From IMG/VR virus record IMGVR_UViG_3300020202_000068, positions 1-64,000 of that record: a stretch of 64,000 nt of DNA; one strand, given 5' to 3'. The position numbers and the translations under genes are program-made. The number at the start of each line of letters is the position of its first letter. The stretch's first letter is position 1. This stretch comes from a virus. The notes under the pieces are model-generated. The model saw only the letters and a list, made by a program, of their open reading frames with translations. It had not been told where the DNA came from and ran no database searches. This document shows, piece after piece, positions 22,947-64,000 of the stretch.

Positions 22947-22964
22947 TATCGTAATCCTTTACGG

Positions 22965-23318
22965 TTAGTCTGATCCGTGGTATCGCGCGACGTACGCTAA
23001 TCGCCTAAATCCTACCCGATCACCAGAGCCGGTGGCGGTGATCTCCAGGTAGTACGTGGAGTTCTCCGTGAGCGATACCCCGTCTTCCAGGACCCCCTCG
23101 TAAACCCCCTGCGTGCCCGTCACGTAGGTCATAGAAACGGCGGAGGCTCCAGAGACCGCCGATCCAGCGGAGTTCTTGAGGGTGAATGTGAGCGTGGCGT
23201 CATTCAGAAAGGTCCCGGCCACCCGGTCGTACAGGCCGCTGCCAGGGACATCCCGATCGCCCCAAAAGACGACATTGTCCTCGCCGATGTATAAGTTACC
23301 GCCCTTGATTCCTGGCAC
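22965..23318 (-). CDS. virion structural protein, Ig-like (putative)
   Basis: GTG start with AAGGA; beta-strand-rich. Confidence 0.65.
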   Translation of the reverse strand: MPGIKGGNLYIGEDNVVFWGDRDVPGSGLYDRVAGTFLNDATLTFTLKNSAGSAVSGASAVSMTYVTGTQGVYEGVLEDGVSLTENSTYYLEITATGSGDRVGFRRLAYVARYHGSD

Positions 23319-23342
23319 AGCAGCATCCTTGCCGCAAAAGGC

Positions 23343-23555
23343 CTATTCGGCTCCCGATCCATTCACGTAATCCACAATCCCAACTTCCCCTTCCAGCCGG
23401 GCTCGCAGGCCTATCTTACCATCTAGGTAGGGGTAAATCCCGACCATCCCGATCAGCGCGTTCACCAGCGGCACGGCCTGGGCCTCACCAGCCACCCAGG
23501 TCCACATCTGACCTGAGCAGTCCAGCTGCCCGGATTGATGGAGTTCGGTGATCAT
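23343..23555 (-). CDS. hypothetical protein
   Basis: TAATG coupling. Confidence 0.5.
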   Translation of the reverse strand: MITELHQSGQLDCSGQMWTWVAGEAQAVPLVNALIGMVGIYPYLDGKIGLRARLEGEVGIVDYVNGSGAE

Positions 23556-25123
23556 TAGGTGGGTTGCGTGCGGAACTGAATAAAGCGGGTGGCGCAGCCA
23601 GTCCCAGTGAACTTCAAGAGGATGTTATCCGCCGTCATCTCGGTGCTTGTGAGGGTGATCTTATAGGCCCCAGCACTGATCTCGCTGGCGCTGTTCGAGC
23701 AGGAGGCAAAGGCTCCGCCATCCTTACTGATTGTGGCCGTGACCGTGACTCCCGTCTCCGGGGTATTGAAGTCCGTGGCATCCACCATCACGAATGTCAA
23801 GTCAGCCAGGGCCACTCCACGGGTGGGGCGATTCGGATTATCGGCAATGATGGAGTCCACGAGCAGGTCCAGCCGACCGCCATTGGCCCAATCCGTTTGG
23901 AGTTCATTCGTATCCGCCAGGATCGCCGTAATATCCGTCTGGGCCGTGGAGAGCGATGAAGCTGTAGCGTAGCTTGCTGCTGCAAGCGTCCTAGCCTCCA
24001 TCTCGGCATTTGTGGGTGGGTCGTACACGGCCAGGGCGTCTGCTACTTCACTCTGTGCTTCGGCGTCCCAATCCGCGTTCCACTGCGCCGTCGCATGCGG
24101 GAGAATCGCGAACTCACTGCCTGACGTGGGCGTTGTGATCCAGGCTGGTGTTACCGTCGCCGTCTTCGAGCTGCCCACGTAATCCGTGATGAGCCTCGAC
24201 TGGCCCGCACCAGTGCCGCTTGTGATCCGCAGCACATTGCCGTTGTAGATGTCATCCGTGGCGCTGGCAGACGTATCCAGAACCGCTGTCGTGGAGGTGC
24301 TGCCGCTTTGGCAATTCACACCGCTGCGGATAGCCTTCCAGCCAGAGCCGGTAGCGAAGGAATCGGCCCCCACTCCGCCGCTGGCAATCGTAACCCCCGC
24401 TGAGACAGAGGCGACGCTTCCCAGTAGATTTCCCGTAATGTTATCGACAGTGAAGTTCACTCCACCCGTTCCGTCGAACGCCGCCTCCAGGCTATCGGCG
24501 GCCGTAGAGTCACCGCTGATTTGGGCCATGTTCACGGCTGGGATACCGCTGGCGAACGTCCCCGCCGAACCACCAAAGTTCACCACATTCACCCCAAGCT
24601 GCGCCGTACTCGTCGAGACAGCTGAGCCGGCGATGTTGATGAGGTTCGCGCGGACTTCGGTTGAGGCGACTGCGGTGCCGGCCCAGTGGGTTGTGTTAAC
24701 TTCTGGGCGTCCGCTGGAGAAGGTGCCGTTGCTGCCGCCAAATTGGGTGACGTTGGCTGGCAGGTTAGCCGCGCTTAAGTCAGCTTGATACATCGCAGAG
24801 GCGTTGCCGTACGTCTCGACATCGAACATTTGGTCTTCAACGGCCTTGGTTGCCGAGTCGGCTACGGTGATGCTGAGGACTTTGCATTGCAGCTCGGCAT
24901 CGCTGAATACAAACTTCCACATCGCCGTGTTGCCCATCGTGATAGCTGTCGGGAGCGTGCCGATGTTCGCAGCAGCGGCTCCATCCTTCGACACCTTCAC
25001 GTCACCGGCTGATGGCGTCCAATCAGCGCTCACCGCGAAGTCCACGACGGCACGCTTGACAATCGGCACGTAAACATCAGCGCCCGTGCCAGTGCCGTAT
25101 TTGCGAAGAAAAACTCCCATCAA
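23555..25123 (-). CDS. tail fibre-like protein
   Basis: Ser/Thr/Ala/Gly-rich; repeated VN..Q..G..; ITSGTGAGQSR.I.DY; SKDG domains at both ends. Confidence 0.7.
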   Translation of the reverse strand: MMGVFLRKYGTGTGADVYVPIVKRAVVDFAVSADWTPSAGDVKVSKDGAAAANIGTLPTAITMGNTAMWKFVFSDAELQCKVLSITVADSATKAVEDQMFDVETYGNASAMYQADLSAANLPANVTQFGGSNGTFSSGRPEVNTTHWAGTAVASTEVRANLINIAGSAVSTSTAQLGVNVVNFGGSAGTFASGIPAVNMAQISGDSTAADSLEAAFDGTGGVNFTVDNITGNLLGSVASVSAGVTIASGGVGADSFATGSGWKAIRSGVNCQSGSTSTTAVLDTSASATDDIYNGNVLRITSGTGAGQSRLITDYVGSSKTATVTPAWITTPTSGSEFAILPHATAQWNADWDAEAQSEVADALAVYDPPTNAEMEARTLAAASYATASSLSTAQTDITAILADTNELQTDWANGGRLDLLVDSIIADNPNRPTRGVALADLTFVMVDATDFNTPETGVTVTATISKDGGAFASCSNSASEISAGAYKITLTSTEMTADNILLKFTGTGCATRFIQFRTQPT

Positions 25124-26828: not shown

Positions 26829-26843
26829 TCAATCACTCCCTAT

Positions 26844-26924: not shown

Positions 26925-26925
26925 G

Positions 26926-27785: not shown

Positions 27786-27794
27786 TCGTGCCTC

Positions 27795-28019: not shown

Positions 28020-28370
28020 CTATTGCCTGTCCCGTTCATCCAGGACGCGATCGAGGTGGCGGTGTACGTTCTGGTCATCCGTGGCGGCCTTGGCGGCCTC
28101 GGCGATATGGCCCAGCATCTTGGGCACCTTCGACTGGACTGTGAAGCTCTTAGTGAGCATGTCCAGGTTCTTGGTATTAGCCTCCAGGCTTTCTGTATTG
28201 CGCTTCGAACAGTCCTTGAGCACGTCCGTCAGCTCGATCTGGCCCTGAAACCACTTCCCCCCGTACATCCAGATCAGGTACATCACCAGCCCGAAGATGG
28301 CCGTGAGGGGGCCTTTCTCCAGGAGGTAGGTGACGACGCTGCCGATGTCTGGTGCTTGCGCGAATAGCAT
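28020..28370 (-). CDS. holin-like protein (1 TM plus coiled coil)
   Basis: hydrophobic N-terminal helix; lysis-region position. Confidence 0.5.
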   Translation of the reverse strand: MLFAQAPDIGSVVTYLLEKGPLTAIFGLVMYLIWMYGGKWFQGQIELTDVLKDCSKRNTESLEANTKNLDMLTKSFTVQSKVPKMLGHIAEAAKAATDDQNVHRHLDRVLDERDRQ

Positions 28371-28396
28371 GGGGCGAATCCATTCGTCCTAATTAA

Positions 28397-30590: not shown

Positions 30591-30989
30591 CTATTCCGCG
30601 CAGTGTTCGCACTTCTTCATGACCTTCAGGACCGCCTCTTCATGGTCCTTATCGCCAGCTTCCTTAGCCTTAAACAACTCCTCCAGGAGCTTCTTCAGGA
30701 AGTCGGAGAAGTCAAAAGGACCGGGGGCGGGTGGGGTGGGATCAGTGTTAGGGGGCTGCGGCTCCAGGCGAGCCAATAGGAACTTCAACAGCTGCACCAG
30801 AATCGTGGAGAAACTGAAGCCGCCGCCTGCCTGAGCGGGCTGACTACCCCGGAAGAACAGCAAGTAGATCGCGATCGCTGCGGCGATCAGCGGGTGGGAC
30901 TGAATCAGTCCAATCAGGAAAGAGATGTCTTGCACGACAAGGCCTCCATGCCAAAGAACGTCCATCATCGACCAGCCGTGATCATACAC
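30591..30989 (-). CDS. membrane protein (start uncertain)
   Basis: hydrophobic helices, Pro-rich linker. Confidence 0.55.
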   Translation of the reverse strand: MYDHGWSMMDVLWHGGLVVQDISFLIGLIQSHPLIAAAIAIYLLFFRGSQPAQAGGGFSFSTILVQLLKFLLARLEPQPPNTDPTPPAPGPFDFSDFLKKLLEELFKAKEAGDKDHEEAVLKVMKKCEHCAE

Positions 30990-31032: not shown

Positions 31033-31073
31033 CAAAAGCGACATGCCGTGTCGCTTTTGACGTAAGTCCTTAT
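31033..31073. repeat. palindrome plus TAAGTCCTTAT element, copy 2
   Basis: CAAAAGCGACA-N5-TGTCGCTTTTG-ACGTAAGTCCTTAT. Confidence 0.85.
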
Positions 31074-34000
31074 TTCTTGGTTGCCTTTCGCTTCTTACCA
31101 CGCTCATCGAGCAGGCTGTCCAGGGATTTCAGCTGGGCCACCAGCGCCTTTTTCTCGGGTGAGAGCGACGCAATTACGTCCTTCGGGATGTAGGCGCTGG
31201 AGAAGACCCGGCCACCGAGCTGCTTCTCGACGCGAGCCACCCGGTTGCGCAGCTCACGATCCATCGAGGCCGGAGAAACGTCCGTTAGATGCACACCAGT
31301 TCCGAGATTAACCGCCTTGGTGGCGGCGTTCTTGCGGGGATCGGTGAGTGTGCGGAGGGACGTAGCCACGCCCGAGAGCGGGGAATTCGAGAGCACATGC
31401 TCCATCAGGCCGCTGCCTGGATACCGAACCGGCTCCTTGGACTGCCGTAGGCCTGTCAGTTGGCCGATATTCGCCAACGTGCGGCCCAGCGGTGGGTCCA
31501 GGTCTTCCAGGTCTCGACCACCGAACGGCCCCTTCTGAAAGGCCGAGCGGCCGAACATATACTCCAGCGGGCCCTTAATGACCGGGCTGGTGCGGCTGAT
31601 AGCCTCCAACCCAACCTGCTTCAGGCTGGGGGTGGCGAATCCGGCTGGGTCTTCGAAGCCCAGGCCCAGGCCCGTCAGGTAGCGGCGCGAACCGTCCTGG
31701 AGGTCGCCTAGAGGGATACTGGCGGTCTCGGAGAGGTATTCAGGGGATAAGTCTTCGTGGCGGTGCTCGCGGCCCAGAGCCTTTATAGTCTGGGCCATCG
31801 GGCCGCCGGGGCTCGTCAATAGCCGCTCAATCGTCCATGGCAGGTTATTCCGACTGAACACATAAAACGGCACCACCCGCCGCATAACCTCCCGCTCGAA
31901 CGGGGCCATCGCGTGAGTCGAGTAGTCGTAATGCACCTCGGTCACGATCTTGGCGGCTTGCTCAGGATCAAACCCCTTGCCCTTCAGGTACTGATAGAGG
32001 GCCGCCCGGTTGTGATACTCCACCACCCGGTTCATCTTGGCGTTGGTCTGCATCCAGGTCCCAGCACCTTTACGAACCCCCTTCACGCCCTGGCCGAGCA
32101 GCGACGAGGGGTCGGCCGTGATCTGGCTCTCGACCTCTTTCGCGGTGGCCTTGATGTTTAGTGGGTTGTCTGGCAGGGCCTGATGCGGTGGCATTGCTCC
32201 CTGATAGACGTGCTGGTGGGCTTCGAGGGTCGAGTCGGCCCCGAGAATACCCATTACCTCCAGCTCACGCTCAAAGGACTTATCGCCTTTCCGCCAGAGA
32301 CTATTCACCTCGCCATACGCCTTCACGTAGTCCGCAATGTCGGCCGGGTTCTCGATGTACCCGCTAACAAGGTTGGCATACTGACCGCTGGTGTGATTGC
32401 GGAACCAGAATGCCGGCTTAACAAGCACCATCGCCGGTTTGAAATAACGATTGACGGTATCGAGCGTATTAGTGACCAGGTTTGCCCATTCCGGGTTCTC
32501 GTAGGTCTTAATGACGGCCGCTGCCGCATTAGCCAGCTCTGCCGGAACACGGGCCGCATCCAGCTGATCCAGCGGCACGCCAGACAACTTCCAGAAGTGC
32601 TGAAGCGCTGTATTCGGGTCCATCCCGGCGTGCTTAAAGGCGTCTTCTAGCCGCACCCCATCGCTGCCGAGGTTCATGTGGAAGGCTTCGTGAATAGCAC
32701 GGAAGGAGGCGTTCCGTTTATGGGCCTGGAGCATGTACCGTCCGAGGTCCTGGAAGGTCATATTGTCGAACAGTCGCTTCTGCTTCTCGACAGCGTCGGG
32801 GCTGGCGGCTTTCGCATACTCCGCCAGCTCTTTGGCGTGGGAAATCGAGTCCACGATGTCGTCTTTGGCCCGATAGCCGAGGTTGGGGAAGTCCTTGAGG
32901 ATTTCAGCCGCCCCACCCTCAGCGCGGTACTTCGGGTTCATTCGCAGGTCTTCAATCTGATCGGCACGCAAATGCCGCAGCGCCTCCTGGCGACCAGCCA
33001 TAGACTCGTGTCCGGTTGGCAGCTGACGGAAGGTATCCAGCGGACCTGTGCCCCGCTTGGACATATGCCTGGGGAAGTGCTGGAATTCATCAGTCTCGTC
33101 AATGAGATGCCCTTTACCGCCCATCTCCAGGTTTTGCCGCCACAGCTCGTCTTTGGCGGTGACGGCGTCCTCAGCCAGCTTGGCGATGTCGTCTTTCAGA
33201 GCGGCGGGAATCTCCGCTCCTGAGGCAAATTTCTCGATAGCCGCGTCCACATCCCCCTTCGTCTCGGCCGTCATGCGGAGAATGCGATCAAAGACCCGGG
33301 CTACGGGATCATGGGCAGCCCGCAGGCTCTCCGGTAGGTCGGCTGAGTTCGCCTTGGTGAGCTTCTCGAAGGGCATCTTTACCGTGGCCGTGGCCCCGGT
33401 CTGTGGGTGGGTGAAATGCACCTCTGCCCCGTCGTCCACCACCGAGGCAACGTACCCGTAGTTGCCACGGTCGGAGGCCTGAACAAGGTCTCCCTCTCGG
33501 AATGGCTTCGCTGATGCCTTGACGCCCTCAAACACATACGACTTACCGCTCCCAACATCCAGCCGAGTCCTTGCCCCTGGCTGGAGGATTTCGTCGGGAC
33601 CCAGCTCTCGCCATCCGTCAGGAGCGGCCTGACCGGCAGGCTTAAATGCCTGGCGGAATTTATCATCCACTTCCTTGAAGCGGTCCCAGAACTGGAGGGA
33701 TTGCTGGACGACCTGGCGGCGAGCAGCGGGCATCTTCTCGCTGGCCAGCTCAGAAACCACCTGGCCGTACTTATCGAATCGGCCACCCGATGGACCATGG
33801 AACAGGCCCTTTACCGTCCGCTTCACGGCACTGCCAGCGGCAGCAGCGGCGCGAGCACCGGGGATATAAGAGGCGGCTTTCCCGAGCCCTTCGATCAGCT
33901 TGGCCCCGCCCTCCCCAGCGCCCAGTGTTTGCGTCCCCATCCCCGGAATCCACAGATTCGCCACCCCGCCCAGAGGTTCTTTAAGTATCTCGTCGAAGTT

Positions 34001-34582
34001 CACACCCATCTTGGTGGCGGCATTCTTCGCGGCTGATCGGCGGGTGGTCTGCGTGGCCTCATCCCCGAAACTCAAGAGATCATCGAGCGTGGTGCGGGCC
34101 ATGGCCGGGGCGCGGCCCATCGTGGCACCTGCCCCCAGCTTGCCGGAGCGGCGGCCAGCGGCGGTCGCAGCCTTCGCCACGTCTCTCAGGGCCCCGGCCG
34201 CGTGAGCGACCTTCCCGGCCTTCGTGGCAGCCCCCAGCTTCGTGGCAAAACCAAGTGGATTGAGATACGTCAGCGGGTCAGTGGCAATATCCACCGCCAG
34301 CCCGGCACCCCAATTACCCCATGTATCCTTTCTTCCCACCATCCCGGCCTGTCGAAGCAGGTCCCGGCCCTCAACCCGGCCTTCCCCGGAGAGCGGGTGC
34401 AGGATCGGGGTAAGTGGGTTCTTGCCGGCCAGGGCGTTCTTAACGACGGCTCCCGGCGTTCCCAGGACGTTGCCGATATACGAAAGCCCACTCAGTCCGA
34501 CACTCTTGGCCTTCGAGAGGACGCCTTCCGGCTCCGGCGTCGGGCCGAGGAGCTGGTCTTCCGTGTATTTACGCTTAGCCAT
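31070..34582 (-). CDS. large internal virion/ejection protein (putative)
   Basis: 1170 aa Ala/Gly-rich helical; DIATDPLTY, F.FRNH, HYDYS...FER..MRR.VPFY.F.R.N motifs typical of podophage DNA-transfer proteins. Confidence 0.65.
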   Translation of the reverse strand: MAKRKYTEDQLLGPTPEPEGVLSKAKSVGLSGLSYIGNVLGTPGAVVKNALAGKNPLTPILHPLSGEGRVEGRDLLRQAGMVGRKDTWGNWGAGLAVDIATDPLTYLNPLGFATKLGAATKAGKVAHAAGALRDVAKAATAAGRRSGKLGAGATMGRAPAMARTTLDDLLSFGDEATQTTRRSAAKNAATKMGVNFDEILKEPLGGVANLWIPGMGTQTLGAGEGGAKLIEGLGKAASYIPGARAAAAAGSAVKRTVKGLFHGPSGGRFDKYGQVVSELASEKMPAARRQVVQQSLQFWDRFKEVDDKFRQAFKPAGQAAPDGWRELGPDEILQPGARTRLDVGSGKSYVFEGVKASAKPFREGDLVQASDRGNYGYVASVVDDGAEVHFTHPQTGATATVKMPFEKLTKANSADLPESLRAAHDPVARVFDRILRMTAETKGDVDAAIEKFASGAEIPAALKDDIAKLAEDAVTAKDELWRQNLEMGGKGHLIDETDEFQHFPRHMSKRGTGPLDTFRQLPTGHESMAGRQEALRHLRADQIEDLRMNPKYRAEGGAAEILKDFPNLGYRAKDDIVDSISHAKELAEYAKAASPDAVEKQKRLFDNMTFQDLGRYMLQAHKRNASFRAIHEAFHMNLGSDGVRLEDAFKHAGMDPNTALQHFWKLSGVPLDQLDAARVPAELANAAAAVIKTYENPEWANLVTNTLDTVNRYFKPAMVLVKPAFWFRNHTSGQYANLVSGYIENPADIADYVKAYGEVNSLWRKGDKSFERELEVMGILGADSTLEAHQHVYQGAMPPHQALPDNPLNIKATAKEVESQITADPSSLLGQGVKGVRKGAGTWMQTNAKMNRVVEYHNRAALYQYLKGKGFDPEQAAKIVTEVHYDYSTHAMAPFEREVMRRVVPFYVFSRNNLPWTIERLLTSPGGPMAQTIKALGREHRHEDLSPEYLSETASIPLGDLQDGSRRYLTGLGLGFEDPAGFATPSLKQVGLEAISRTSPVIKGPLEYMFGRSAFQKGPFGGRDLEDLDPPLGRTLANIGQLTGLRQSKEPVRYPGSGLMEHVLSNSPLSGVATSLRTLTDPRKNAATKAVNLGTGVHLTDVSPASMDRELRNRVARVEKQLGGRVFSSAYIPKDVIASLSPEKKALVAQLKSLDSLLDERGKKRKATKK

Positions 34583-34620
34583 TGATTCCTTCCTTGGAAT
34601 CTGTAATTCTAGTGAATCCC

Positions 34621-35069: not shown

Positions 35070-35141
35070 GAGTCCTTAGCCTAGAGGAGAGGCATCCGTC
35101 TTCTAAGCGGATATACGCTGGTTCGAATCCAGCAGGACTCG
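35070..35141 (+). tRNA. tRNA-Arg(TCT)
   Basis: GAGTCCT/AGGACTC acceptor, TCCGT-CTTCTAA-GCGGA anticodon arm, GCTGG-TTCGAAT-CCAGC T arm; CCA not encoded. Confidence 0.92.
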
Positions 35142-46947: not shown

Positions 46948-46977
46948 ATAAGTACCCTGCCTTCCTTGGCTTGGGGG

Positions 46978-49234: not shown

Positions 49235-49376
49235 TGGCGAGCATCCTTGCTCTGGTTATTTGATCCGTATAAACGCTCCTGGAATTCATTTCGGAGCGTC
49301 TCCAAGTCCCAGCTGCCACGGTCTTCATCCTCCCACTGCGGCTTTCTTGCTAGATGCGACAGAAGGAGTAGCTCGA

Positions 49377-49847: not shown

Positions 49848-51043
49848 TAGGGCTGCGTCCCTCCGGTTGTGAGGTCAGCACTGGCGACAATGTCGGCTAG
49901 GTTACTAACCATCTTCCCGCCGGGCTGGGTTTCCTCCATTCGCTGGTCAGCAGCCATTGCCAGGCTCAGGGCCCGCTCGTACCGGGCCTGCCGCTCTTCG
50001 TAGCCCTTCCGGTCGCCTGGGGCGAACTTCGCCTCACAGCCCAGCAGGAAGGCGTTCCGCATAGCTCCGGGCTCGATGTCGATCCGGCTGGAGATGCGGT
50101 AATTACTTCCCGAGAGGGTGGTGTCGGCGTCTTGTTCGAGGATCAACTCGGTGGCGGAGTTGCGGGTCTTGATCACCCGCTGCATGGCGTACGGCTCCAG
50201 CCGGTTCTTGTCGATCTCCCCCTGAAAGTCTGTGGGAATCTTTACCGATCCGGTGGCACTGAACCGCATCACGCACCCCTCATGGGCAGCGGTGAACGTC
50301 GTGCTCGTGCCGGTGACCGTGGCGGAGTCGGCCGTCGTGGCCACCGTCCCGATGCTGTGGTAATCCAGGGTCTTTAATGGCTGGGGCCAAAAGAGTCCCA
50401 GAGCTTGGTAGGTGATGGCCGAGGCTGGGGCAGGGGCAAAGTGGATGGCCAGTCCCGAAGCATATCGCTCGGACCGAAACACTGAATACATTCTTGGCGT
50501 GCTGGCGGTTCTGGCGATTCGCTGCTCGGCGATAATATCTCCGGGGTCAACGCACTCAACGAGTCTCCCAGGGGAGGAAGTGTCATAAAGGGAGAGGAGC
50601 TTACGAAGGTTATCGGGGAGTTCGTAGGTGTCTCTAGCAAGCGTATAAGACGTTCCCGACGCAATATCTCTCGTCGGAGCGTCCTTCTCATCCAGAACCA
50701 CCACCGTCGAACTCGTGCGCGTAGTGATCCCATAACGGTTCCCTGCAATCCAAAGAGCGTATTTCGTCACGTCGCTGGGCCAGGTCGTGCTGGTCAGCGT
50801 CACTGAGCGGGTCGAGGCCGTATAGGCGACCGAGCCGGTCGTCTGCTGGGCTGCTGTGGGGATCGTGATGGGCCGGTAGTAGTATCGCCAGTTCCGCCGC
50901 ATGGCGATCTCGGCGTACATCTCCTGCACGGCCCGCGTAGCCATCCGGCGACTACGGGGCGTTGAGTCTCCTGAGAGCACGGAATCCAGGACGTGATCGA
51001 CACAATCCTGGACCGTGAGGAGTGGATAATTGATTAGGCTCAT
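49847..51043 (-). CDS. head-tail adaptor protein with inserted beta domains
   Basis: V.E.Y..I..RRNW.Y, YELPDN..KL, FAPAP, Y...L..A...D motifs. Confidence 0.7.
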   Translation of the reverse strand: MSLINYPLLTVQDCVDHVLDSVLSGDSTPRSRRMATRAVQEMYAEIAMRRNWRYYYRPITIPTAAQQTTGSVAYTASTRSVTLTSTTWPSDVTKYALWIAGNRYGITTRTSSTVVVLDEKDAPTRDIASGTSYTLARDTYELPDNLRKLLSLYDTSSPGRLVECVDPGDIIAEQRIARTASTPRMYSVFRSERYASGLAIHFAPAPASAITYQALGLFWPQPLKTLDYHSIGTVATTADSATVTGTSTTFTAAHEGCVMRFSATGSVKIPTDFQGEIDKNRLEPYAMQRVIKTRNSATELILEQDADTTLSGSNYRISSRIDIEPGAMRNAFLLGCEAKFAPGDRKGYEERQARYERALSLAMAADQRMEETQPGGKMVSNLADIVASADLTTGGTQP

Positions 51044-51073
51044 ACGCAGCCCTCCATGGCTGGAGGACTAGGC

Positions 51074-51739
51074 TTAGAAGCCGAAAATCTCGATCAGGAA
51101 CTTACCGGCCGTGTAGGTGCCGACCGTACCAGCCGCACCGCACGTCAGATATAGATACTCGGTCGAGAGCGGGACGGTCGTGGCACCCTTAACCGTGCCG
51201 TTCGCCCAGGCCCCACCAGCGGTGATTACCGCCGTCTCGGCCAGCGAAGCGATGCCACCATCGAACACACCCGTGCCTTCCGTGGCCGAGTAGAGGTCGA
51301 TGTCGGTGACACCCGTGGCAGGGGCTTCCAGGCAGGTCATCCGTACCGCCAGGATCGTGGTCCCGCATTCGGCCGCTGTGAGCTTGGCGATGTAAGCCGC
51401 CGACCCACCCTGACCGATGATGTCCAGGTCCGTCGTCGAGGACTGAAGGTCCGTGATGTCGATCAGGATCGAAGTGACGTACAGATTGCCTTCCCGGCGG
51501 AGGCTGTTCTTATAGACCGTCCCGGCACCGCCAGTGACGCCAGCCCCAGCACCGGTGGCCAGGCCGGATGGATTCAGGACCACGCCAGTAGCGCCCTTGC
51601 TGGAATCCAGGACCAGCGCCTTCGAGGCCTCAGCCGTACCAGCCGTAGTCACGTCGTAGATGTCTCGGAACTCTTTCGAGGCTCCGATACTACCGAGGGC
51701 CGAGTTCAGGCGGTTCTTCAGGTTTTGGGAGAAAGACAT
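51074..51739 (-). CDS. virion structural protein
   Basis: TAGTAEASKALVLDS, YTAGKFLIEIFG. Confidence 0.65.
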   Translation of the reverse strand: MSFSQNLKNRLNSALGSIGASKEFRDIYDVTTAGTAEASKALVLDSSKGATGVVLNPSGLATGAGAGVTGGAGTVYKNSLRREGNLYVTSILIDITDLQSSTTDLDIIGQGGSAAYIAKLTAAECGTTILAVRMTCLEAPATGVTDIDLYSATEGTGVFDGGIASLAETAVITAGGAWANGTVKGATTVPLSTEYLYLTCGAAGTVGTYTAGKFLIEIFGF

Positions 51740-51774
51740 CGGGGGGAATCCTTTCCTTGAGGCGATGCTTTGCC

Positions 51775-52577: not shown

Positions 52578-52877
52578 TTACTCCTCTGAGAATGGGATTG
52601 GTGGCATGTACGACTGAACGACCTGTTCGCCTCTCGCGGCCCCCATAGCCACGGCCAATCCCCTGTCGATCTCCATCTCGGGCTCATCAGCAAGCCGCAG
52701 ATTGTTCAGGAAATTGGCGTACTGCGAGGCACGGCGATGATGGTCTGGCCCATAAAAGCAAGTCACCATCGCGTTATCACGGAGGTACGGTGTATTGACC
52801 GGGTGGCACTCCACTCGCGTGCAGCCGCGATATGCCTGGTCAGGCATGACGTTGATTAGGTAATCGCAGTAGTTCAT
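52578..52877 (-). CDS. hypothetical protein
   Basis: ATGA overlap with portal stop. Confidence 0.5.
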   Translation of the reverse strand: MNYCDYLINVMPDQAYRGCTRVECHPVNTPYLRDNAMVTCFYGPDHHRRASQYANFLNNLRLADEPEMEIDRGLAVAMGAARGEQVVQSYMPPIPFSEE

Positions 52878-55800
52878 TTCTTACTCCCTGAGGGTTTCGG
52901 CTTGGCTGCGGCTACGGCTTTTGTAGCCTGCACTTTCGCCTGTGTCGTTTGTTTGGTGCTATCCACTTTGGCCTTCGTGGCCTGCTTGGATTGCTCGATC
53001 TTCTGCTGGCCCTGGGCCTTATCGAGCTGCATCTTCTGAGCGCCCTGGGCGAGCTGCTGGCCTCCCTGCGCCTTCTGGAGCTGAAGCTGCTGCCGTCCCT
53101 GAGCAATCTGAAGAGCCCCCTGCTCCTTCGTCACGGCCAGGTCCACCTGACCCTTCTCCTGCTGGAGCTGGAGGTCCTGCTGATGCTCCTGTTGTTTGAA
53201 CTGCATGTCAATCTGCTTTTCCTGAATCTTCAGTTCCAGCTCGACACGCTTGGCCTCTAGCTCAGCTTGCAGCTTCTGCATTTCCATCTGGAGCCGCTGG
53301 ACTTCAGCCTCCTGCTCCATCTGGAGTTCCTGCTGCTTGAACTGGGCTTCCATTTGAAGCTCGACCATCGGATTGGCCTGGGCCTCGCCCTGGAGCTTCA
53401 TGGCCTCGGCCTGGAGCTTCTGAACCTCTGCCTGCTTCATCTGCTGATCCAGCTGGGCGTTCGGATCATTCGGGTCCTTCTGCGGGAACATGAGTCCGTC
53501 CAGCTCCATGTCGTGCAGTTCCGCGAACTTCCGCATGTAGCCGTTGGCCGGCTCGTAATCGCCGGAGAGTTCCCCGTACTTCTGCACCATTGGCAGGAAG
53601 CGGGTCCCGAACTCAGAGAAGTTGTCGATGTCTCGATCCTTGTTTGGCCGGCGGATACTGGCCGCTGCGACCTCGTACCTCATCTGCCGCATGATCAGCT
53701 CGTGGTCGGCGTTCTCGATGTACTGGGCCCAGAGAGAGGCTCCCGTGCGGCCCATGAGCGGGGCCACGTCCTTGCTCTTCACGAACATCCAGGCGATCAA
53801 GGCCTCGACGCTGGCCACCCGGCTCTGCCACTCCACGACCTTCTTCTGCATGTGCTCGGGACGCACCCCGACCGCTTGCTTGCGGGCGTTGGTGGTCTCG
53901 GCCGTGCGGTCCTGGGTGCCGCCTTCGTTCTGGCCATACACGAACGGGGTCATACCCATCCGCTTATCGAACAAGCTGTTCAGTAGCTCCAATACCTCCC
54001 AGGGGTCCTTATTAATGTCCTTGCCCTCGACGAGCTGGATCATCTTCTTGACATCCTGATCACCGCCGATGGGAATCCCGAAGACGCTCATATCGTCGCC
54101 GTCTTCGAGCTGCTTCTTCAGCTCGTCGTGGTACTGGCTCATCACGGCCCACATCTGCCGGCTGGATTGCCAGGTGCGGTTCACGAGCCAGGAGACAATG
54201 GCGTTGATCGCCTTTAGCTCACCCAGAGCGGGAGCCAATGGAGGGAGTCCGTATGGACTGTCTGTGTCCTGGTAGAAGATGAGTCGCTCAACAGGCCATC
54301 TATCATCGGTCCAGAGAGGGATAGGCCACTCGAAATGTGATCTAACCTCTTCAGAACTAGCTCCGCTCCTAATTTTGTCGGATGGGCAGTTGAGTGGGTA
54401 CGGGCAATCAGGGCAGATCGCAAGGTAGGCGTAATCACCGACGGTTTCCTCCAGCTGATTCTTGAGCATGTCCGGCATCCCGGTCATCCGGCTGCCGACA
54501 CCGCATTTCGACCAGATTTCGTACCAGACCACCAGGTCGTTCGTCTTCCCGCTCTTCCGCTCTCCGGTGGCTTGGCCTTCCTGGCTCATGGCTTCGGCGT
54601 AATGCCAGCCTGACTCTAGGGAGGCCTTGCCTTTGAGAGCGCCTTTAGGGAGCTTGAACTTCCGCTCGACCTGCCAGTGGGGCTGGATGTGCTTGCGGGC
54701 CACCCACTTACACTGTTGGGAGGTCTTGAAGTCAGGGTCGTAGATCAGGTCTTCCGGGGGGCAATGGAAGCAGCCAGTGAGCTGGAGATCGGAGCCCGGC
54801 ATCGTATAGGGACCCGGGATCAGGCAGCCCGCCCCCTTGAGCATGGCGTCTAGGACCGCCAGTTCGTTATGGCCCGAGAGCCCGTCCCCCGGCATTTCCC
54901 GGGGCGTGTAGTTCAGCCACTGCTGCATCATGTGCCCGACGATTTTGTCGCTGGCACTTTCCTGGGCAGCTTGCTGCTGAATGAACTGATAGAGCTGCTG
55001 ATCGGGGAACAGCTCGGGTGGGATTTCCAGCAGCTTTTTGCTCGTAGCTGTGCGATGCGGTACGTCCCATAAGAGATTGGGGCCGAAAACCGCCACATAC
55101 TCGAAAGCCTTGTTGATATTGATCCGAAAGCGGGGAGCCTTCACTCCCCGCCAGAACTTCTTGGCGTACAGCGGGTCCCACATGGCAGCCGCTGACTTGC
55201 CGTAGAACATGACGCAATTGCCGCTAATTAGCGGCTTGCCGTTGCGGCGTGTGATCAGCGTACCGTTCGGGACGGTGGCGCAGTACACCATTCCGTCGTA
55301 CTGCTCCGTGTGGTACTTCAGCTTAATCTCGTCGCCGGTGTGTCGCTTTAGAGAGGCTCGCTTGCCTTCGCTCCAGGAGGTCACGAGGTAGAGCTTGCCG
55401 CTCATCCCGGTCCTGGTTTCGAGGCCTGGGTCGGTGATCGCGTATGGTGCTGGCTGTCTCTCGCTGATCGAGGCGCTGCGGCCGATCTTGAGCCACAACT
55501 CCTGGATGTCATCGGCAAGCTGTTTGCTGGCTGTTCCTGATATGGCATGGCCGTGGCGGACGTGGCCGTCACCGGCCAGATACCCACGCAGGAACGCGCG
55601 GATCACGTTCTGGGGGGAGTCTTTAACCCACTGAGGAACCCGCTTGTCGTAGCAGCTTGTGCCGAACTGGCGAAGGTATTCGCACAGCTCCTTGCTGGTG
55701 AATGTGTACGACTTCATCAGCTTGCTATACGGCGGAGCTGGGAACCCGACCCGCTTTGCCAGCTGCTCGTAATACCTGCGTCCAGCCGTCTTTTTCTGCG

Positions 55801-56383
55801 CAATGCCAACTCGATATGGAACGCGAGCTTTCTTCTCGCTCTTTTTCGAGCACCAGCCTTCGGCAATGTAAAAGCCAAGCCATTCGGCGAAGTCAGCCGG
55901 GTCGGTGTCGCCAACGAAATCAGGCAATCTCGGCTTAGTGCCATGCCAATTGGCTGAGGTCAGCTTTAGTTGCTCGCTACGGCGAAGGGAGCTGGCTTCC
56001 TTCAGGGCGGCCCGCCCGGAGTGTGGCGGGAAAAAGACCATTCGGTGGCCTGGGGTCACCATGGCGTCAAGAGACTTACCGGCAAAGCGGATCATCTCAC
56101 CGGCCCTGTGGTGACGGACCAGCCTGGTAGGAACCTGGAACTCGATTGTGTCGGTTTCCAGGTTCACGGTCCCAAGCGGCTCGTCGCCGGTTAGGTCACT
56201 GAAGAGCATCCAGCCGGTGCTGGTGAGCACCTCTGTTTGCTCGTCATGGCATTCATCCGCCACTTCCTTCCACCGCTTGCGGGCGGGGCAGGTCAGCGCA
56301 GACTCCAGCTTGGCTAACCAACCTGTAACAATAGGGCGCAGGAATTCATAATTCCTGTCCTCGAAGGCTGCCAGGTCTTGCAT
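52874..56383 (-). CDS. portal protein (P22-like, Q-rich C-terminal coil) containing an intein
   Basis: DAMLKGAG, PEDL.YDPD...CKWVA, RTAET motifs; position after TerL. Confidence 0.85.
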   Translation of the reverse strand: MQDLAAFEDRNYEFLRPIVTGWLAKLESALTCPARKRWKEVADECHDEQTEVLTSTGWMLFSDLTGDEPLGTVNLETDTIEFQVPTRLVRHHRAGEMIRFAGKSLDAMVTPGHRMVFFPPHSGRAALKEASSLRRSEQLKLTSANWHGTKPRLPDFVGDTDPADFAEWLGFYIAEGWCSKKSEKKARVPYRVGIAQKKTAGRRYYEQLAKRVGFPAPPYSKLMKSYTFTSKELCEYLRQFGTSCYDKRVPQWVKDSPQNVIRAFLRGYLAGDGHVRHGHAISGTASKQLADDIQELWLKIGRSASISERQPAPYAITDPGLETRTGMSGKLYLVTSWSEGKRASLKRHTGDEIKLKYHTEQYDGMVYCATVPNGTLITRRNGKPLISGNCVMFYGKSAAAMWDPLYAKKFWRGVKAPRFRININKAFEYVAVFGPNLLWDVPHRTATSKKLLEIPPELFPDQQLYQFIQQQAAQESASDKIVGHMMQQWLNYTPREMPGDGLSGHNELAVLDAMLKGAGCLIPGPYTMPGSDLQLTGCFHCPPEDLIYDPDFKTSQQCKWVARKHIQPHWQVERKFKLPKGALKGKASLESGWHYAEAMSQEGQATGERKSGKTNDLVVWYEIWSKCGVGSRMTGMPDMLKNQLEETVGDYAYLAICPDCPYPLNCPSDKIRSGASSEEVRSHFEWPIPLWTDDRWPVERLIFYQDTDSPYGLPPLAPALGELKAINAIVSWLVNRTWQSSRQMWAVMSQYHDELKKQLEDGDDMSVFGIPIGGDQDVKKMIQLVEGKDINKDPWEVLELLNSLFDKRMGMTPFVYGQNEGGTQDRTAETTNARKQAVGVRPEHMQKKVVEWQSRVASVEALIAWMFVKSKDVAPLMGRTGASLWAQYIENADHELIMRQMRYEVAAASIRRPNKDRDIDNFSEFGTRFLPMVQKYGELSGDYEPANGYMRKFAELHDMELDGLMFPQKDPNDPNAQLDQQMKQAEVQKLQAEAMKLQGEAQANPMVELQMEAQFKQQELQMEQEAEVQRLQMEMQKLQAELEAKRVELELKIQEKQIDMQFKQQEHQQDLQLQQEKGQVDLAVTKEQGALQIAQGRQQLQLQKAQGGQQLAQGAQKMQLDKAQGQQKIEQSKQATKAKVDSTKQTTQAKVQATKAVAAAKPKPSGSKK
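55217..56251 (-). mobile_element. intein with LAGLIDADG (DOD) homing endonuclease, 345 aa
   Basis: E|CHDEQTEVLT..GW, VTPGH, WLGFYIAEG, FLRGYLAGDG, VYCATVPNG..ITRRNG....GN|C. Confidence 0.93.
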
Positions 56384-56400
56384 TTAGGCGTCCTTGCCTG

Positions 56401-56868
56401 TTAGGCCGGGGCCGGCAGGATGTCCGGCGGGCGTCGCTTCACCAGGGGAGCGGTCTTTCGCTCCTCCTGCTTCTTCTTAAACAGGTCCTCGTTCGCTTTG
56501 GCGTTTTCCTCGCCAGCCCGAAGGTTGGTTTCCCGTTTAGCGATCTCCGAGCGATGGAGGTCGTAATCCCCATCTTCGATGTCGCTCTGCCGGACGTAAT
56601 CCCAGGCCCCGTTGTTGCGGGTTCCGGGGTTCGGCTTCTGGTGAATTTTAGCAGAGACGTGGTACACGCCGGGCCTGTGCTGGGGAAAGCTGTTGATCGG
56701 GAAGACCACCAGCTTCAGCCGCCCGGGCCCTTCGATACCGCTGATCTGGGCCGGAACGGGGTGTTTCAGGTCCCCGCCCACGTACCAGACCACCTTCTCA
56801 CCCACCGGGGGAGTCGGCTGGAGGTTCGCTTTGTCCTCCTGAATTTCCTTCCAAGCTACCTCGTTCAT
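56401..56868 (-). CDS. hypothetical protein
   Basis: ATG 56868 behind an AAGGA hairpin. Confidence 0.65.
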   Translation of the reverse strand: MNEVAWKEIQEDKANLQPTPPVGEKVVWYVGGDLKHPVPAQISGIEGPGRLKLVVFPINSFPQHRPGVYHVSAKIHQKPNPGTRNNGAWDYVRQSDIEDGDYDLHRSEIAKRETNLRAGEENAKANEDLFKKKQEERKTAPLVKRRPPDILPAPA

Positions 56869-56997
56869 CGGAATCCTTTCCTGGGGTAACAAAAATAGTG
56901 AACGTCATGTCCCCGAACGGCATGTTCAGATCGTAACGCCCGTCAAGGAGCAGCTCCGTGCCGTCTCCTAAATTCTCATCGAGCCAAATCGCACTCA

Positions 56998-61885: not shown

Positions 61886-61899
61886 TTCCAACTCCTCCA

Positions 61900-61946: not shown

Positions 61947-62041
61947 AAACCCCAGTGGATTTTCATCCACAACAAAGCTCCCCTCAGGGAAAAAGGAGCC
62001 TTGTTCTATGTCCCATACCTGCATATGGGGATTTCGATCGC

Positions 62042-62680
62042 TTAGAACAACTGAACGTCGATCAAAATGTCGGCGTTCGTGTTGCCAGTCGTTTTGGCGG
62101 ACATCGCTCGGGCGAATTTGTAGAGCTGGTTGCTGTTGGCGAACGTGATGTTCGTCGTGACGCCAGCTTCCGAGATCGCGGGAACCACACGGCCGGAGGT
62201 CGTCGAGTGCGTCGAGGCGGCACCCGTCGAGTTCACCAACCAGTCGTCCACCGCAATGACGTTCGTGCCGTCAGCCGCGAGGCCGGTGAGGGCGAGCGTC
62301 GGACCTCGGACGGTCAGCCAGAAGTAGTCGTTGTTCGGGCAGCCCGTGGAGGGGAGCCATTCATCGACGATTCCGGCGATCGCCCGGTCGGGGCAGAACT
62401 CGGCGTAGCCATCCACCTGCTTGCCGCGCTGACCCGATTTCCAGGTCACCGCCATCTTCGGCAGGAGGGCCACACCACTCGAATTCCGTACGAGGATGCA
62501 GACCACTTCGCCACCCGAACGCGGAGCCTTTGGCCCGGTGCCCGAGTAATCGAGGTCTTTGAAGGTCTTGATGATTCCCTCAATGGCCTTGCTGGTCGTG
62601 CCGGTTGAGTCGGCAGTCCGGTTGGGGCCAGTGAGGTAGGTCTTCCCGCGCTGGGGAAGGGCAACAACATTGTCAGGCAT
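62042..62680 (-). CDS. capsid decoration/cement protein (putative)
   Basis: directly after MCP; VRNSSG.ALLP, GIVDE, FWL.VRGP. Confidence 0.7.
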   Translation of the reverse strand: MPDNVVALPQRGKTYLTGPNRTADSTGTTSKAIEGIIKTFKDLDYSGTGPKAPRSGGEVVCILVRNSSGVALLPKMAVTWKSGQRGKQVDGYAEFCPDRAIAGIVDEWLPSTGCPNNDYFWLTVRGPTLALTGLAADGTNVIAVDDWLVNSTGAASTHSTTSGRVVPAISEAGVTTNITFANSNQLYKFARAMSAKTTGNTNADILIDVQLF

Positions 62681-62754
62681 TGTGAGAAATCCTTTTCTCG
62701 CTAGTCAGTTTTTGCCTTTTGGCGAATACCCTGAATCCTGAGGGGTTAAATGGC

Positions 62755-63867
62755 TTAGGCGAAGTTCTTGAGCTTGGCGAAGAACTTCGGGCTCTCGAAG
62801 CTGGCCTGGCCGTAGAAGCCGCAGGCCCAGAGGGCCGCATAGCCACTACGCGGGTCTTCGGTCGGACCACGCATCCAGAACAGCTCGGGCATCAGGCTCG
62901 CGATCTCCATCTTGGAGGTGTTGAGCATGTAGCCGGTGTTGGCCGGGCAGTCGTAGTCCGAGCTGATCGCACAACCATCCTGGTTCAGGGTGAAGCCCTG
63001 GAAGCCGAGGTCGTTGGCGGTCTTGTGCGGGATGCTGATCCGGCGGATCGCTTCGTCGTGGTTCTTGTACGACTGGAAGAGATTGGGAGCCAGGACGCAG
63101 AGTTCCGGGCCACCCTCGTCGCCGTTGGTGTGGGTCAGCCAGGTGATCGTCTGGCTGATGACGCGCCAGCAGTTGTCTTCGAACGTGGTGCTGCCGGTGC
63201 CCCAGCCCGTGCTCGACCAATTGACCAGCTTCGGCGCGAAGTAGTCGTACTCGCTGTCGCCCGAGCCGTCCGGCCAGTCCTTGGCCAGCGTGGCATTGGG
63301 ATACGTTGAGAGAGCCGAACTCCAGGTCCCGCCCTGATCGGCGAGGTTGGTATTCAGGCCGGCGTAGCTGTCATTGGGTGTGGAGATGCGGTTGCCGGCG
63401 GCGCTATTGGCCTCGGTCATGAACGTCTCCAGGCCGTAGATCGCGTTCTCGCGACCCGACCCACCACCTGCGCTGTAGATTTCCGCTGCCAGACCGTTCT
63501 GGAGCTTCTTCATCAGGCGACCTTGTTTGGTCTTGAAGAGATTGACGAGAGCGGCTTCCCCGCTGTTCATCGCCTTCTGCTTCATCGTGATCGAGTCCGA
63601 GGCCTGGTAGCCCGACCACGGGAGGACGGCCTGTTGGAAGGCCTGGTGATTCGTAAAGTCGATCATCGAGCCGTCGCCATGCTGGTGCATGGTGGGCTGC
63701 GAGAACTCAACCTGCCAGCGGAACTCATAACCGCTGTTGTTGAACGTGATCCGGCCCTTCCGCTTGAGCATCGCAAACAAGAGACGCTTGCGAACGGTCA
63801 GGTCCGAGGCCCCCTTCATGTAGGCTGGCTTCGTGGTATTGATTACGCCAATCCATTCGTCAGACAT
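62755..63867 (-). CDS. major capsid protein
   Basis: 370 aa, strong codon bias, L...L..KG, N.GE..LVNL, I.GL, YMLN motifs typical of HK97-fold MCPs. Confidence 0.85.
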   Translation of the reverse strand: MSDEWIGVINTTKPAYMKGASDLTVRKRLLFAMLKRKGRITFNNSGYEFRWQVEFSQPTMHQHGDGSMIDFTNHQAFQQAVLPWSGYQASDSITMKQKAMNSGEAALVNLFKTKQGRLMKKLQNGLAAEIYSAGGGSGRENAIYGLETFMTEANSAAGNRISTPNDSYAGLNTNLADQGGTWSSALSTYPNATLAKDWPDGSGDSEYDYFAPKLVNWSSTGWGTGSTTFEDNCWRVISQTITWLTHTNGDEGGPELCVLAPNLFQSYKNHDEAIRRISIPHKTANDLGFQGFTLNQDGCAISSDYDCPANTGYMLNTSKMEIASLMPELFWMRGPTEDPRSGYAALWACGFYGQASFESPKFFAKLKNFA

Positions 63868-64000
63868 CGCTTTTCATCCTTGAAAAGGCCGGCGTAGGGC
63901 AGGCCGCCCAGGTCAGCGTCGTGCTGGCCCTAGGAAGGGCGTGATGCCTACTACCGAAATCTCGTCGTTCAGGCCGCCCCGCTGTGCTGCCGGTAAGCGT

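Follow-up and report, generated by a model that had tools for sequence, protein, structure and literature searches.

CsrA-family proteins prefer a 6-nt GGA loop on a short stem closed by a C-G or A-U pair, their dimers use a second GGA site for bridging, and flagellin is a classical CsrA target. The SELEX consensus of CsrA, RUACARGGAUGU, carries its GGA in a hairpin loop (PMC4347634). In cellular CsrA/RsmA/RsmE repression (E. coli glgC, cstA and pgaA; Pseudomonas hcnA), a short hairpin overlaps the Shine-Dalgarno (SD) sequence and presents the GGA in its loop. The same arrangement is present in the genome described here, that of an uncultured soil phage (~77 kb) whose host range is probably planctomycete bacteria. 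The loop AAGGAU with a C-G closing pair, C-AAGGAU-G, matches the consensus core CARGGAUG, a CsrA-family gene is present in the same genome, and the ribosome site of this csrA also bears a hairpin. The known targets belong to cellular metabolism and motility, whereas those predicted here are the virus's own late genes. Most leaders here have one clear site, and no CsrB/RsmZ-type sponge was recognised.

Phage-encoded CsrA/RsmA homologues are present in 81 phage records. Mobile-element genes of this family include those of Burkholderia phages DC1 and CSP3, the Pseudomonas F116 type, Serratia phage Parlo and the plasmid gene RsmQ, with the CSP3 homologue lying among structural genes, as here; they have been discussed as manipulators of host mRNAs (CRISPR-Cas, motility), without targets inside the element (PMC8450108; PMC10269572). 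In contrast, the putative operator set here is carried by the phage genome itself, and five other csrA-carrying phages, all cultured, have no hairpin enrichment. The ColE7 lysis gene is a late or lethal gene on an extrachromosomal element that is gated by CsrA, but it is a single gene under host CsrA only, without an element csrA or regulon (PMC2896534).

In the CsrA-FliW-flagellin checkpoint (Bacillus, Campylobacter, Borrelia), leader hairpins serve to hold back an abundant self-assembling structural protein. Planctomycete flagellin leaders have similar hairpins and the phage CsrA resembles planctomycete paralogues, the difference being that virion genes are the predicted targets here. Small start-site hairpins also let a phage protein time the synthesis of others in MS2/Qbeta (coat protein and replicase) and T4 (RegA), where the binder family and motif differ from the many operators with one shared loop proposed here.

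We came across no published account of a CsrA regulon internal to a phage. With its own csrA and CsrA-type hairpins on about 14 virion-side genes, this phage probably controls the translation of its own late proteins through ribosome-site hairpins, CsrA being the predicted binder.

Hairpins on the ribosome sites of late genes

The ribosome-site hairpins form a real, late-biased and evolutionarily maintained class of ribosome-binding sites. Coordinates refer to the window, the 64,000-nucleotide stretch of DNA analysed, unless given as genome positions. All 12 stem-loop-stem strings of the original prediction are present on the minus strand where it had placed them, and three more hairpins were found, at 30941-30952, at 42101-42116 (csrA) and at genome positions 65157-65172, outside the window. 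The features are as follows (MFE, minimum-free-energy fold).

63870-63887, minus strand: CUUUUC-AAGGAU-GAAAAG on the ribosome site of the major capsid gene 62755-63867; local MFE
62684-62699, minus strand: GAGAA-AAGGAU-UUCUC on the ribosome site of gene 62042-62680 (212 aa, without family match); local MFE
56870-56881, minus strand: GGA-AAGGAU-UCC on the ribosome site of gene 56401-56868 (155 aa); local MFE
56386-56399, minus strand: AGGC-AAGGAC-GCCU on the ribosome site of gene 52874-56383 (1169 aa, predicted as "portal"); not the local MFE
51745-51756, minus strand: GGA-AAGGAU-UCC on the ribosome site of gene 51074-51739 (221 aa); local MFE
51047-51070, minus strand: leader of gene 49847-51043 (398 aa); CAGCC-AUGGAG-GGCUG is weaker, MFE is a 10-bp stem
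49239-49252, minus strand: GAGC-AAGGAU-GCUC on the ribosome site of gene 48293-49234 (313 aa, PHROG 290 "minor tail protein"); local MFE
46959-46970, minus strand: GCC-AAGGAA-GGC upstream of gene 45619-46947; local MFE
46945-46947, minus strand: ACG codon at the ATG start position of the orthologues; same letters in contigs of two soil metagenome runs
42101-42116, plus strand: GGACA-GGGAGG-UGUCC on the ribosome site of csrA
42121-42318, plus strand: csrA, 65 aa from TTG 42121
34584-34601, minus strand: GAUUCC-AAGGAA-GGAAUC on the ribosome site of gene 31070-34582 (1170 aa, without family match); local MFE, z -2.2
30941-30952, minus strand: weak hairpin GGC-AUGGAG-GCC on the ribosome site of gene 30591-30935, newly found
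28375-28386, minus strand: CGA-AUGGAU-UCG on the ribosome site of gene 28020-28370 (116 aa, putative "holin-like"); local MFE
23320-23335, minus strand: GCGGC-AAGGAU-GCUGC, with one G-U pair, on the ribosome site of gene 22965-23318; local MFE
22950-22963, minus strand: CGUA-AAGGAU-UACG on the ribosome site of gene 22611-22946; local MFE

The hairpins had been described as lying just 5' of the start codon, and 11 of the 12 lie 1-6 nt upstream of it; the exception, at gene 45619-46947, has no canonical start, its ACG being aligned to ATG in every orthologue. The local MFE is the claimed hairpin in 10 of the 12 leaders, and AAGGAU loops close further through an A-U pair to leave an AGGA tetraloop. 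For the "portal" leader the string is present, but a different fold is preferred locally. The same is true of the "adaptor" leader (51043), where the best fold is a 10-bp stem at 51047-51070 that pairs CCUCC with the GGAGG ribosome site (-17.7 kcal/mol, z -3.07). This fold hides the ribosome site instead of showing it in a loop, and its pairing CCCUCC...GGAGGG is kept in relatives G003 and G006.

As for gene identities, the capsid assignment stands (PHROG 9953), whereas "portal", "adaptor", "tube", "decoration", "holin-like" and "ejection" have no family support; "terminase" and "tail" family matches are weak. The 1169-aa gene has an intein-like insert. Gene 28020-28370 has no PHROG match and just one weakly hydrophobic stretch, while the product of gene 30591-30935 has one clear transmembrane segment. 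Among others, loops are found at the capsid gene and its immediate upstream neighbour, at two very large genes on the virion side and at several small ones closing the late region.

Stem excess, late bias and covariation

Every ANGGAN at ribosome-site distance before the start of an open reading frame (ORF) of at least 60 aa was scanned on both strands of the whole 77,276-bp genome, and right flanks were permuted among the ANGGAN sites (2000 permutations). Stems of at least 3, 4 and 5 bp were observed at 22, 15 and 9 sites, against 6.1, 2.6 and 1.0 expected; the observed counts were reached in 0 of 2000 permutations. The excess persists with the ORF minimum raised to 100 aa and 150 aa. Taken one by one, the hairpins are weak, at -3 to -12 kcal/mol, and do not outperform shuffled sequences.

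The proposed enrichment in late genes is borne out, with hairpins at 15/42 late genes and 4/57 early genes (Fisher p = 5e-4; curated gene list). When only genes with an intergenic gap of 15 nt or more are counted, the figures are 13/24 late and 3/34 early (p = 2e-4). Early genes have GGAG/GGAGG-type sites, in agreement with the earlier remark on their open SDs.

Hairpin sites also have a composition of their own. Of 63 non-hairpin sites, 45 have a G following GGA and none a U, whereas GGAU is found in 9 of the 19 hairpin sites. GGAG, favoured by ordinary sites, pairs better with the anti-SD than GGAU does. Twelve of the 19 hairpin loops are AAGGAN and nine have U as their last base; most are closed by a C-G or A-U pair. 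A second GGA lies at most 60 nt away in 11/14 leaders, a frequency not above that at other genes.

Varied stems around a fixed loop had been taken as a sign of selection on structure, and comparison with related phages agrees: 19 pair positions changed on both sides with loop and pairing kept (9 orthologue groups, 4 lineages), and three uncultured relatives conserve the hairpins with other stems. Capsid orthologues have UUUUAGC/GCUAAAG in G001 and CGC/GCG in G003. At gene 62042-62680 the stems are GGAA/UUCC in G005 and GCGA-AAGGAA-UCGC in G003. Orthologues of gene 52874-56383 have GCGGC-ACGGAG-GCCGC in G003 and, in G005 and G001, GAGC-AAGGAU-GCUC over the start codon itself. Others are CGGA-AAGGAU-UCCG (gene 51074-51739, G001), ACGCC-AAGGAU-GGUGU and GUGU-AAGGAA-ACAC (gene 45619-46947, G005 and G001), CUUC-ACGGAG-GAAG (gene 31070-34582, G005) and GGC-AAGGAG-GCC (gene 22965-23318, G005). 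The hairpin at 56870-56881 is near-invariant in G005, G001 and G003 and thus gives no covariation evidence, and that at 49239-49252 is not conserved at orthologues in relatives. A DNA-level operator was considered and is unlikely, since the arms vary around a conserved non-palindromic centre.

These hairpins might instead be a ribosome-site design that needs no protein, in which a GGA in a small loop stays single-stranded whatever the flanking mRNA does. It may shield the intercistronic gap from RNases and give robust, high late translation, the CsrA likeness being a by-product of SD resemblance. We consider this unlikely, while noting that the hairpins sit at gap-preceded genes needing fresh initiation (the 13/24 above), that the most abundant virion proteins bear them, including the capsid protein, which is needed in large amounts, and that short weak stems would block ribosomes little. 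The preference for GGAU argues against such a design, being a poorer anti-SD match, and the tight AGGA tetraloop would lower site availability. Moreover, hairpins are rare at early genes with as much intergenic room, and the ribosome site of csrA has one.

Another RNA-binding protein, an unrecognised repressor like MS2 coat protein or T4 RegA, would have room among the many phage proteins without a family match. The motif closely fits CsrA specificity and a csrA gene is present, so that such a binder is highly improbable, as is a compositional accident, chance being excluded by the permutations and negative controls.

The phage csrA and a predicted late-gene circuit

As predicted, the phage encodes an intact csrA of its own (Pfam PF02599, 69.3 bits against a cut-off of 27). 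It is a lone plus-strand gene within the minus-strand late region, and its stop overlaps that of the convergent gene 42315-42656. Over its full length the protein aligns with the CsrA of B. subtilis and that of E. coli, and the R6 and R44 equivalents and the Arg of the REE motif are kept. The leader upstream of the csrA hairpin (~110 nt) has five more GGA words. Own-site hairpins are also present in G001 (UAAGU-CAGGAG-ACUUA) and G008 (UUGC-UUGGAG-GUAG); a GGA-loop hairpin on the ribosome site of csrA (G000, G001, G008) is expected given known CsrA autoregulation.

Judging from sequence, we put at about 60% the probability that CsrA-family proteins bind the hairpin loops and repress late-gene translation, rather than activating it or stabilising the mRNAs. 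The hairpins would be operators, with the ribosome-binding GGA of about 14 late-region genes in a 6-nt loop, most often AAGGAU. A bound CsrA dimer would mask the ribosome site and so reduce the initiation of translation. The phage CsrA would do the binding, very probably together with host paralogues.

The antisense position of csrA in the late region and the similar hairpin on its own site make a circuit plausible. CsrA made before or without late transcription would keep late proteins off and limit its own synthesis. Strong late transcription would then yield operator-bearing mRNAs that outnumber CsrA and, by running antisense through csrA, may release the block, a logic that would amount to an early-to-late switch.

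The "sponge" also proposed, at 20445-20523, remains a candidate: four GGA words and a hairpin resembling a terminator are present, Rfam gives no match, and the relatives lack orthologues of its neighbours.

Co-occurrence in relatives and candidate hosts

Three hairpin-bearing genomes, G000, G005 and G001, cover the csrA region, and all three have the gene antisense at one shared position. Gene and hairpins occur together in three lineages, and both are absent in G002, which, like G006, falls within the hairpin clade (SH-aLRT of 98 or more). In G002 the syntenic spot lacks csrA, hairpins are not enriched, and the capsid leader resembles a decayed hairpin copy; but G002 is a fragment (~46% complete), so csrA could sit elsewhere in that genome. 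The joint gain and loss of csrA and hairpins counts for no more than two events. The disappearance of hairpins in the lineage without a syntenic csrA speaks against the protein-independent design. More distant csrA carriers (G007, G008, G009 and locus L135) show no clear hairpin enrichment, marginal at most in G008 and G009 and none in L135, which, with the cultured phages, favours that design. A phage can thus have a csrA without such a regulon, and the protein may act chiefly on host mRNAs.

Prediction had allowed for a generic host architecture, and no enrichment was found in 210 kb of the planctomycete genome hosting a related prophage, which is the host of a hairpin-less relative and may not be that of this phage. 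A further relative is a contig in a Planctomycetaceae MAG, whose six CsrA paralogues share 49-55% identity with the phage CsrA.

Host paralogues might act alone, tying late synthesis to the Csr state of the host (motility, growth phase), while phage CsrA reprograms host mRNAs (defence, flagella), as proposed for other phage homologues. Published views stress such host manipulation (PMC8450108), and host CsrA represses the lysis gene of the ColE7 operon (PMC2896534). We regard this as distinctly improbable, as the hairpins co-occur with a syntenic phage csrA, are missing where it is missing, and lie on its own site. It differs from regulation by the phage CsrA solely in the binding protein, and both may act.

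Lastly, flagellin leaders on the host side bear similar structures, a point for the CsrA reading in general as well as for host CsrA. The one in the prophage's host has the same AAGGAU hexaloop, GGCUGC-AAGGAU-GUAGCC at -54, and two other planctomycete flagellin leaders have AGGGAC hexaloops at -52/-54 with different stems.

Hexaloop hairpins at late-gene ribosome sites

The original prediction placed 12 hairpins with a CsrA-type ANGGAN hexaloop on the ribosome sites of - strand late genes. All 12 stem-loop-stem strings are present, and in 10 of them the local minimum free energy fold is a short hairpin carrying GGA in its loop. The hairpins overlap the ribosome-binding site or the start codon. 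Counted from the start codon, the first G of GGA is 8-12 nt upstream in 11 of the 12 and 18 nt upstream at the gene starting at 46947.

For the enrichment test, all ANGGAN words lying at ribosome-site distance from long ORFs were treated alike, and the right flanks were permuted among sites. Stems of at least 3, 4 and 5 bp were observed 22, 15 and 9 times, with 6.1, 2.6 and 1.0 expected, values equalled in 0 of 2000 permutations. The enrichment is unchanged at longer ORF cut-offs. A looser test in this genome, allowing any 4-9-nt loop with GGA and stems of at least 4 bp, had too high a background; the signal is confined to hexaloops in which GGA occupies loop positions 3-5. Three additional hairpins were found:

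30941-30952, - strand: additional hairpin
genome 65157-65172: additional hairpin preceding the 394-aa gene that lies upstream of the capsid gene
genome 68164, + strand: additional member at a + strand gene

The gene upstream of the capsid gene also contains internal hairpins, at genome 64144-64178. No in-frame start follows them, and they are either unexplained or due to chance.

The full IMG/VR virus record is 77,276 bp, the window being its bases 1-64000, and its two ends share a repeat, which makes the genome circular or terminally redundant. It is organised as follows:

~65.6 kb via the origin to 22.6 kb, + strand: amidoligase and glutamine-amidotransferase genes (phiEco32 type), superfamily-2 helicase
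65.2 down to 22.6 kb, - strand: capsid gene (PHROG 9953), weak terminase match, tail-like proteins, many family-less proteins
37.4-40.2 kb, + strand: island interrupting the late region
42121-42318, + strand: lone csrA interrupting the late region
35070-35141, + strand: one tRNA gene between opposite-strand late genes (Rfam RF00005, 62.8 bits)

The early region at 3200-10354 (+ strand) holds a phiEco32-like COOH-NH2 ligase, an amidoligase and a class-II glutamine amidotransferase. This set is the peptide or amino-group ligation module of some phages.

With a curated gene list, hairpins stand at 15 of 42 late genes versus 4 of 57 early genes and, where at least 15 nt of intergenic room is available, at 13/24 versus 3/34. 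At hairpin sites GGA is followed by U in 9 of 19 cases, at ordinary sites in 0 of 63; the latter mostly have G, the base that matches the anti-SD. Hairpin sites form a separate class of ribosome site. The main rival to CsrA control, a protein-free "display" design for strong initiation, accounts for the choice of abundant proteins, but it leaves unexplained both the preference for GGAU and the late bias at equal intergenic room.

In terms of loop sequence, AAGGAU is the commonest across the four hairpin-clade genomes (16), followed by AAGGAA (8), and the closing pair is most often C-G (42 of 107), then A-U (19). The CsrA SELEX consensus places GGA in a hairpin loop (PMC4347634); C-AAGGAU-G equals the core of that consensus, and the flanking bases of the hairpins fit the SELEX/RsmE consensus (C-ARGGAU-G; A/UCANGGANGU/A). 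A second GGA within 60 nt upstream is found in 11 of 14 hairpin leaders (0.79) and in 0.66 of other genes, with mean counts of 1.07 and 0.99. No enrichment was seen for the second-site geometry that would permit dimer bridging (GGA 10-63 nt away). We give a probability of roughly 60% to the reading that CsrA-family proteins bind the predicted hairpin sites and repress translation.

Conservation among relatives and controls

Relatives of the phage were found via the capsid protein. The same enrichment is present in three other lineages, G005/G004, G001 and G003, with capsid proteins 72-81% identical. The close relatives G002 and G006 and the distant G007 have no hairpin enrichment, and the distant G008 and G009 are marginal at most. 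Distant relatives (capsid protein 41-65% identical) have plain GAGGUGA-type sites. As regards the stem covariation proposed as a check, orthologous genes keep the loop and vary the stems:

capsid gene, 62755-63867, - strand: CUUUUC/GAAAAG, UUUUAGC/GCUAAAG or CGC/GCG
gene starting at 62680, - strand: GAGAA/UUCUC, GGAA/UUCC or GCGA/UCGC
gene starting at 46947, - strand: GCC/GGC, ACGCC/GGUGU or GUGU/ACAC
large gene starting at 34582, - strand: GAUUCC/GGAAUC or CUUC/GAAG

Across nine orthologue groups, counting only orthologues with a hairpin, 19 pair positions changed on both sides with pairing kept. A DNA-level operator was considered and rejected, as the arms vary around a conserved asymmetric centre. 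In G005 and G001 the hairpin of the gene labelled "portal" covers the AUG. The 14-mer GAGCAAGGATGCTC, which is the ribosome-site hairpin of gene 48293-49234 in the window, recurs over the "portal" ATG at ~35396 in G005 and ~15755 in G001.

Two of the relatives point to Planctomycetota, a phylum whose phage biology is, to our knowledge, almost undescribed. Positions 184,759-254,122 of a 352-kb contig in a Planctomycetota genome match the provirus G009 at 100% identity. A second relative lies on a contig of a Planctomycetaceae MAG that also encodes six CsrA paralogues. The phage family therefore has planctomycete hosts, with at least one temperate member.

This host link bears on whether such hairpins are a generic habit of host ribosome sites. 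The 210 kb of planctomycete chromosome flanking the G009 prophage show no enrichment (8, 5 and 0 stems of at least 3, 4 and 5 bp versus 6.9, 3.2 and 1.3 expected), and in the genome tested planctomycete ribosome sites do not generally follow this pattern. Hairpin enrichment is likewise lacking in five cultured phages of Pseudomonas, Providencia and Acinetobacter that carry csrA. With three control sets free of enrichment, the test does not produce a signal on its own.

In other phyla flagellin is the ancestral target of CsrA. At position -54 the flagellin leader of the G009 host has GGCUGC-AAGGAU-GUAGCC, so the motif is found in the host phylum at a gene expected to be under CsrA. AGGGAC hexaloops stand at -52/-54 on different stems in two further planctomycete flagellin leaders; the stems covary among these three Planctomycetota leaders, and several more leaders contain tandem GGA words. 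This pattern of leader sequences suggests CsrA control of flagellin in Planctomycetota.

A metagenome scan with a capsid profile returned 35 loci. The capsid hairpin occurs only at capsid identities of at least 72%, and all loci with it belong to lineages already in the comparison set. A profile of the 45619-46947 protein returned 24 loci and no further hairpin lineage. In this second set, L125-L127 and L129 represent a single phage (identity at least 99.9%). The phage itself is contained, almost clonally, in four soil metagenome DNA runs, and in no RNA run among the public runs listed. Because the soil-run sequences were all contigs and close to clonal, they yielded no stem variants at population level. 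The INPHARED collection of cultured phages gave neither a DNA match nor a capsid-protein match.

The phage csrA and a possible late circuit

The original prediction also held that the phage carries its own csrA. The gene at 42121-42318 indeed encodes a full-length CsrA, with a PF02599 match of 69.3 bits (cut-off 27) covering model positions 2-49 of 53. The protein is closest to planctomycete paralogues, at 49-55% identity. It retains the RNA-contact residues of strand 1 (L4, R6, R7) and strand 5 (V42, R44, I47; E. coli CsrA numbering), keeping the equivalents of R6 and R44 and having K for R7. In a gapless alignment to 1y00 and 1t3o, LSRK pairs with LTRR and IVREEL with VHREEI. At 42118-42123 (+ strand) the codons read ATC-TTG-GTG, where planctomycete and related phage CsrA begin MLVLSRK; the phage protein begins either with TTG, which would leave it one residue short, or with a non-canonical ATC. 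The csrA ribosome site lies within GGACA-GGGAGG-UGUCC, and analogous hairpins are found at csrA in G001 and G008. The folding of the csrA leader is no better than that of shuffles, and a promoter and terminator scan around the gene gave nothing above shuffles.

In the phage under study, as in G005 and G001, csrA occupies the same antisense slot, adjoining the orthologue of gene 42315-42656. In G002 a large ORF comes directly after that orthologue, and even with E raised to 10 no CsrA-like sequence was detected. In a quick ML tree built from seven concatenated structural proteins, G002/G006 fall within the hairpin clade and G003 is basal, with all forks at 98 SH-aLRT or higher. From this nesting, the hairpins were lost in the G002/G006 lineage, and G002 is without csrA at the syntenic position. 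The protein-free design for strong initiation leaves the joint loss with csrA unexplained. The distant relatives G007, G008 and G009 and the locus L135 have csrA at other positions and no hairpins, so csrA alone is no predictor of the regulon.

Phage late-gene control is taught as transcriptional, through sigma factors, antiterminators and activators. The observation of the hairpins is confirmed and strengthened, and the original interpretation, that Csr-type translational control acts on the virus's own late regulon, is partly supported. A self-contained Csr circuit, in which an antisense csrA lying within the late operon and ~14 operator hairpins at late ribosome sites make up a translational toggle gained and lost as a unit, is a tentative extension that we regard with some doubt. 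CsrA would silence leaky or premature late-protein synthesis, as well as its own synthesis. Strong late transcription would then titrate CsrA and also, by convergent read-through, silence csrA; it is the antisense position of the gene that suggests this way of lifting the block. A single gain at the root of a small clade of planctomycete phages would have brought in the whole circuit, and one descendant would have lost it whole.

CsrA homologues encoded by phages have been described and interpreted as host manipulators (PMC8450108; PMC10269572), and the ColE7 lysis gene is repressed by host CsrA (PMC2896534). We did not find CsrA operators on a phage's own late genes described in the literature. 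If the CsrA reading is true, a bacterial global translational regulator has been domesticated into a virus-internal timing or dosage circuit, and the late switch has a post-transcriptional layer. The system is small, with a 65-aa protein and 20-nt RNAs, and natural compensatory-stem variants are ready controls. Such short orthogonal operator/repressor pairs could become parts for synthetic translational control.

Sponge candidate, individual leaders and the "portal" insert

A sponge RNA had been proposed at 20445-20523 (+ strand). As a sponge of the CsrB/CsrC/RsmX/Y/Z type we accepted a curated-family match, or at least five GGA loops in a conserved non-coding RNA ending in a terminator. The candidate has four GGA words, within ~55 nt after the stop of gene 20104-20445, and the proposal was not borne out. 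Two of the GGAs are in loops, one in a CCGC/GCGG hairpin and one in a 7-bp hairpin with the loop AAGGACC. A terminator-like hairpin, GGGC-GAAGAG-GCCC, and a U run come next. Rfam gave no CsrB/Rsm match in the window at the gathering score, nor in 20300-20800 at E up to 10. Relatives lack orthologues of the flanking genes, and the GGA-density windows of the sponge search are located in coding sequence.

At the 46947 gene the hairpin is as predicted, but the start, an ACG at 46945-46947 (- strand), is not canonical. This ACG aligns with ATG in all seven orthologues, is followed directly by the conserved residues ATAKWIGA, and is also found in contigs of two soil runs. The first canonical start of the gene (45619-46947), a GTG at 46911, would remove the ATAKWIGA residues. 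From these alignments, the ACG may be either a rare non-AUG start or a weakened allele.

Similarly, the predicted string is present in the leader of gene 49847-51043, but the best fold there is a different one, a 10-bp stem at 51047-51070 (- strand; -17.7 kcal/mol, z -3.07). In it CCUCC pairs with the GGAGG ribosome site, and the CCCUCC...GGAGGG pairing is conserved in G003 and G006. The leader is thus of the SD-sequestering kind, with its ribosome site in a stable, conserved stem that includes an upstream anti-SD-like stretch. The stem begins 4 nt past the stop of the upstream gene, a spacing that suggests translational coupling of gene 49847-51043.

Lastly, the 1169-aa "portal" gene (52874-56383, - strand) has a 340-aa insert at residues ~46-385 that is absent from every relative. 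Its first residue is a Cys and it includes a LAGLIDADG domain (Pfam PF14528, 52.8 bits), features that suggest an intein carrying a homing endonuclease within a virion-side gene.
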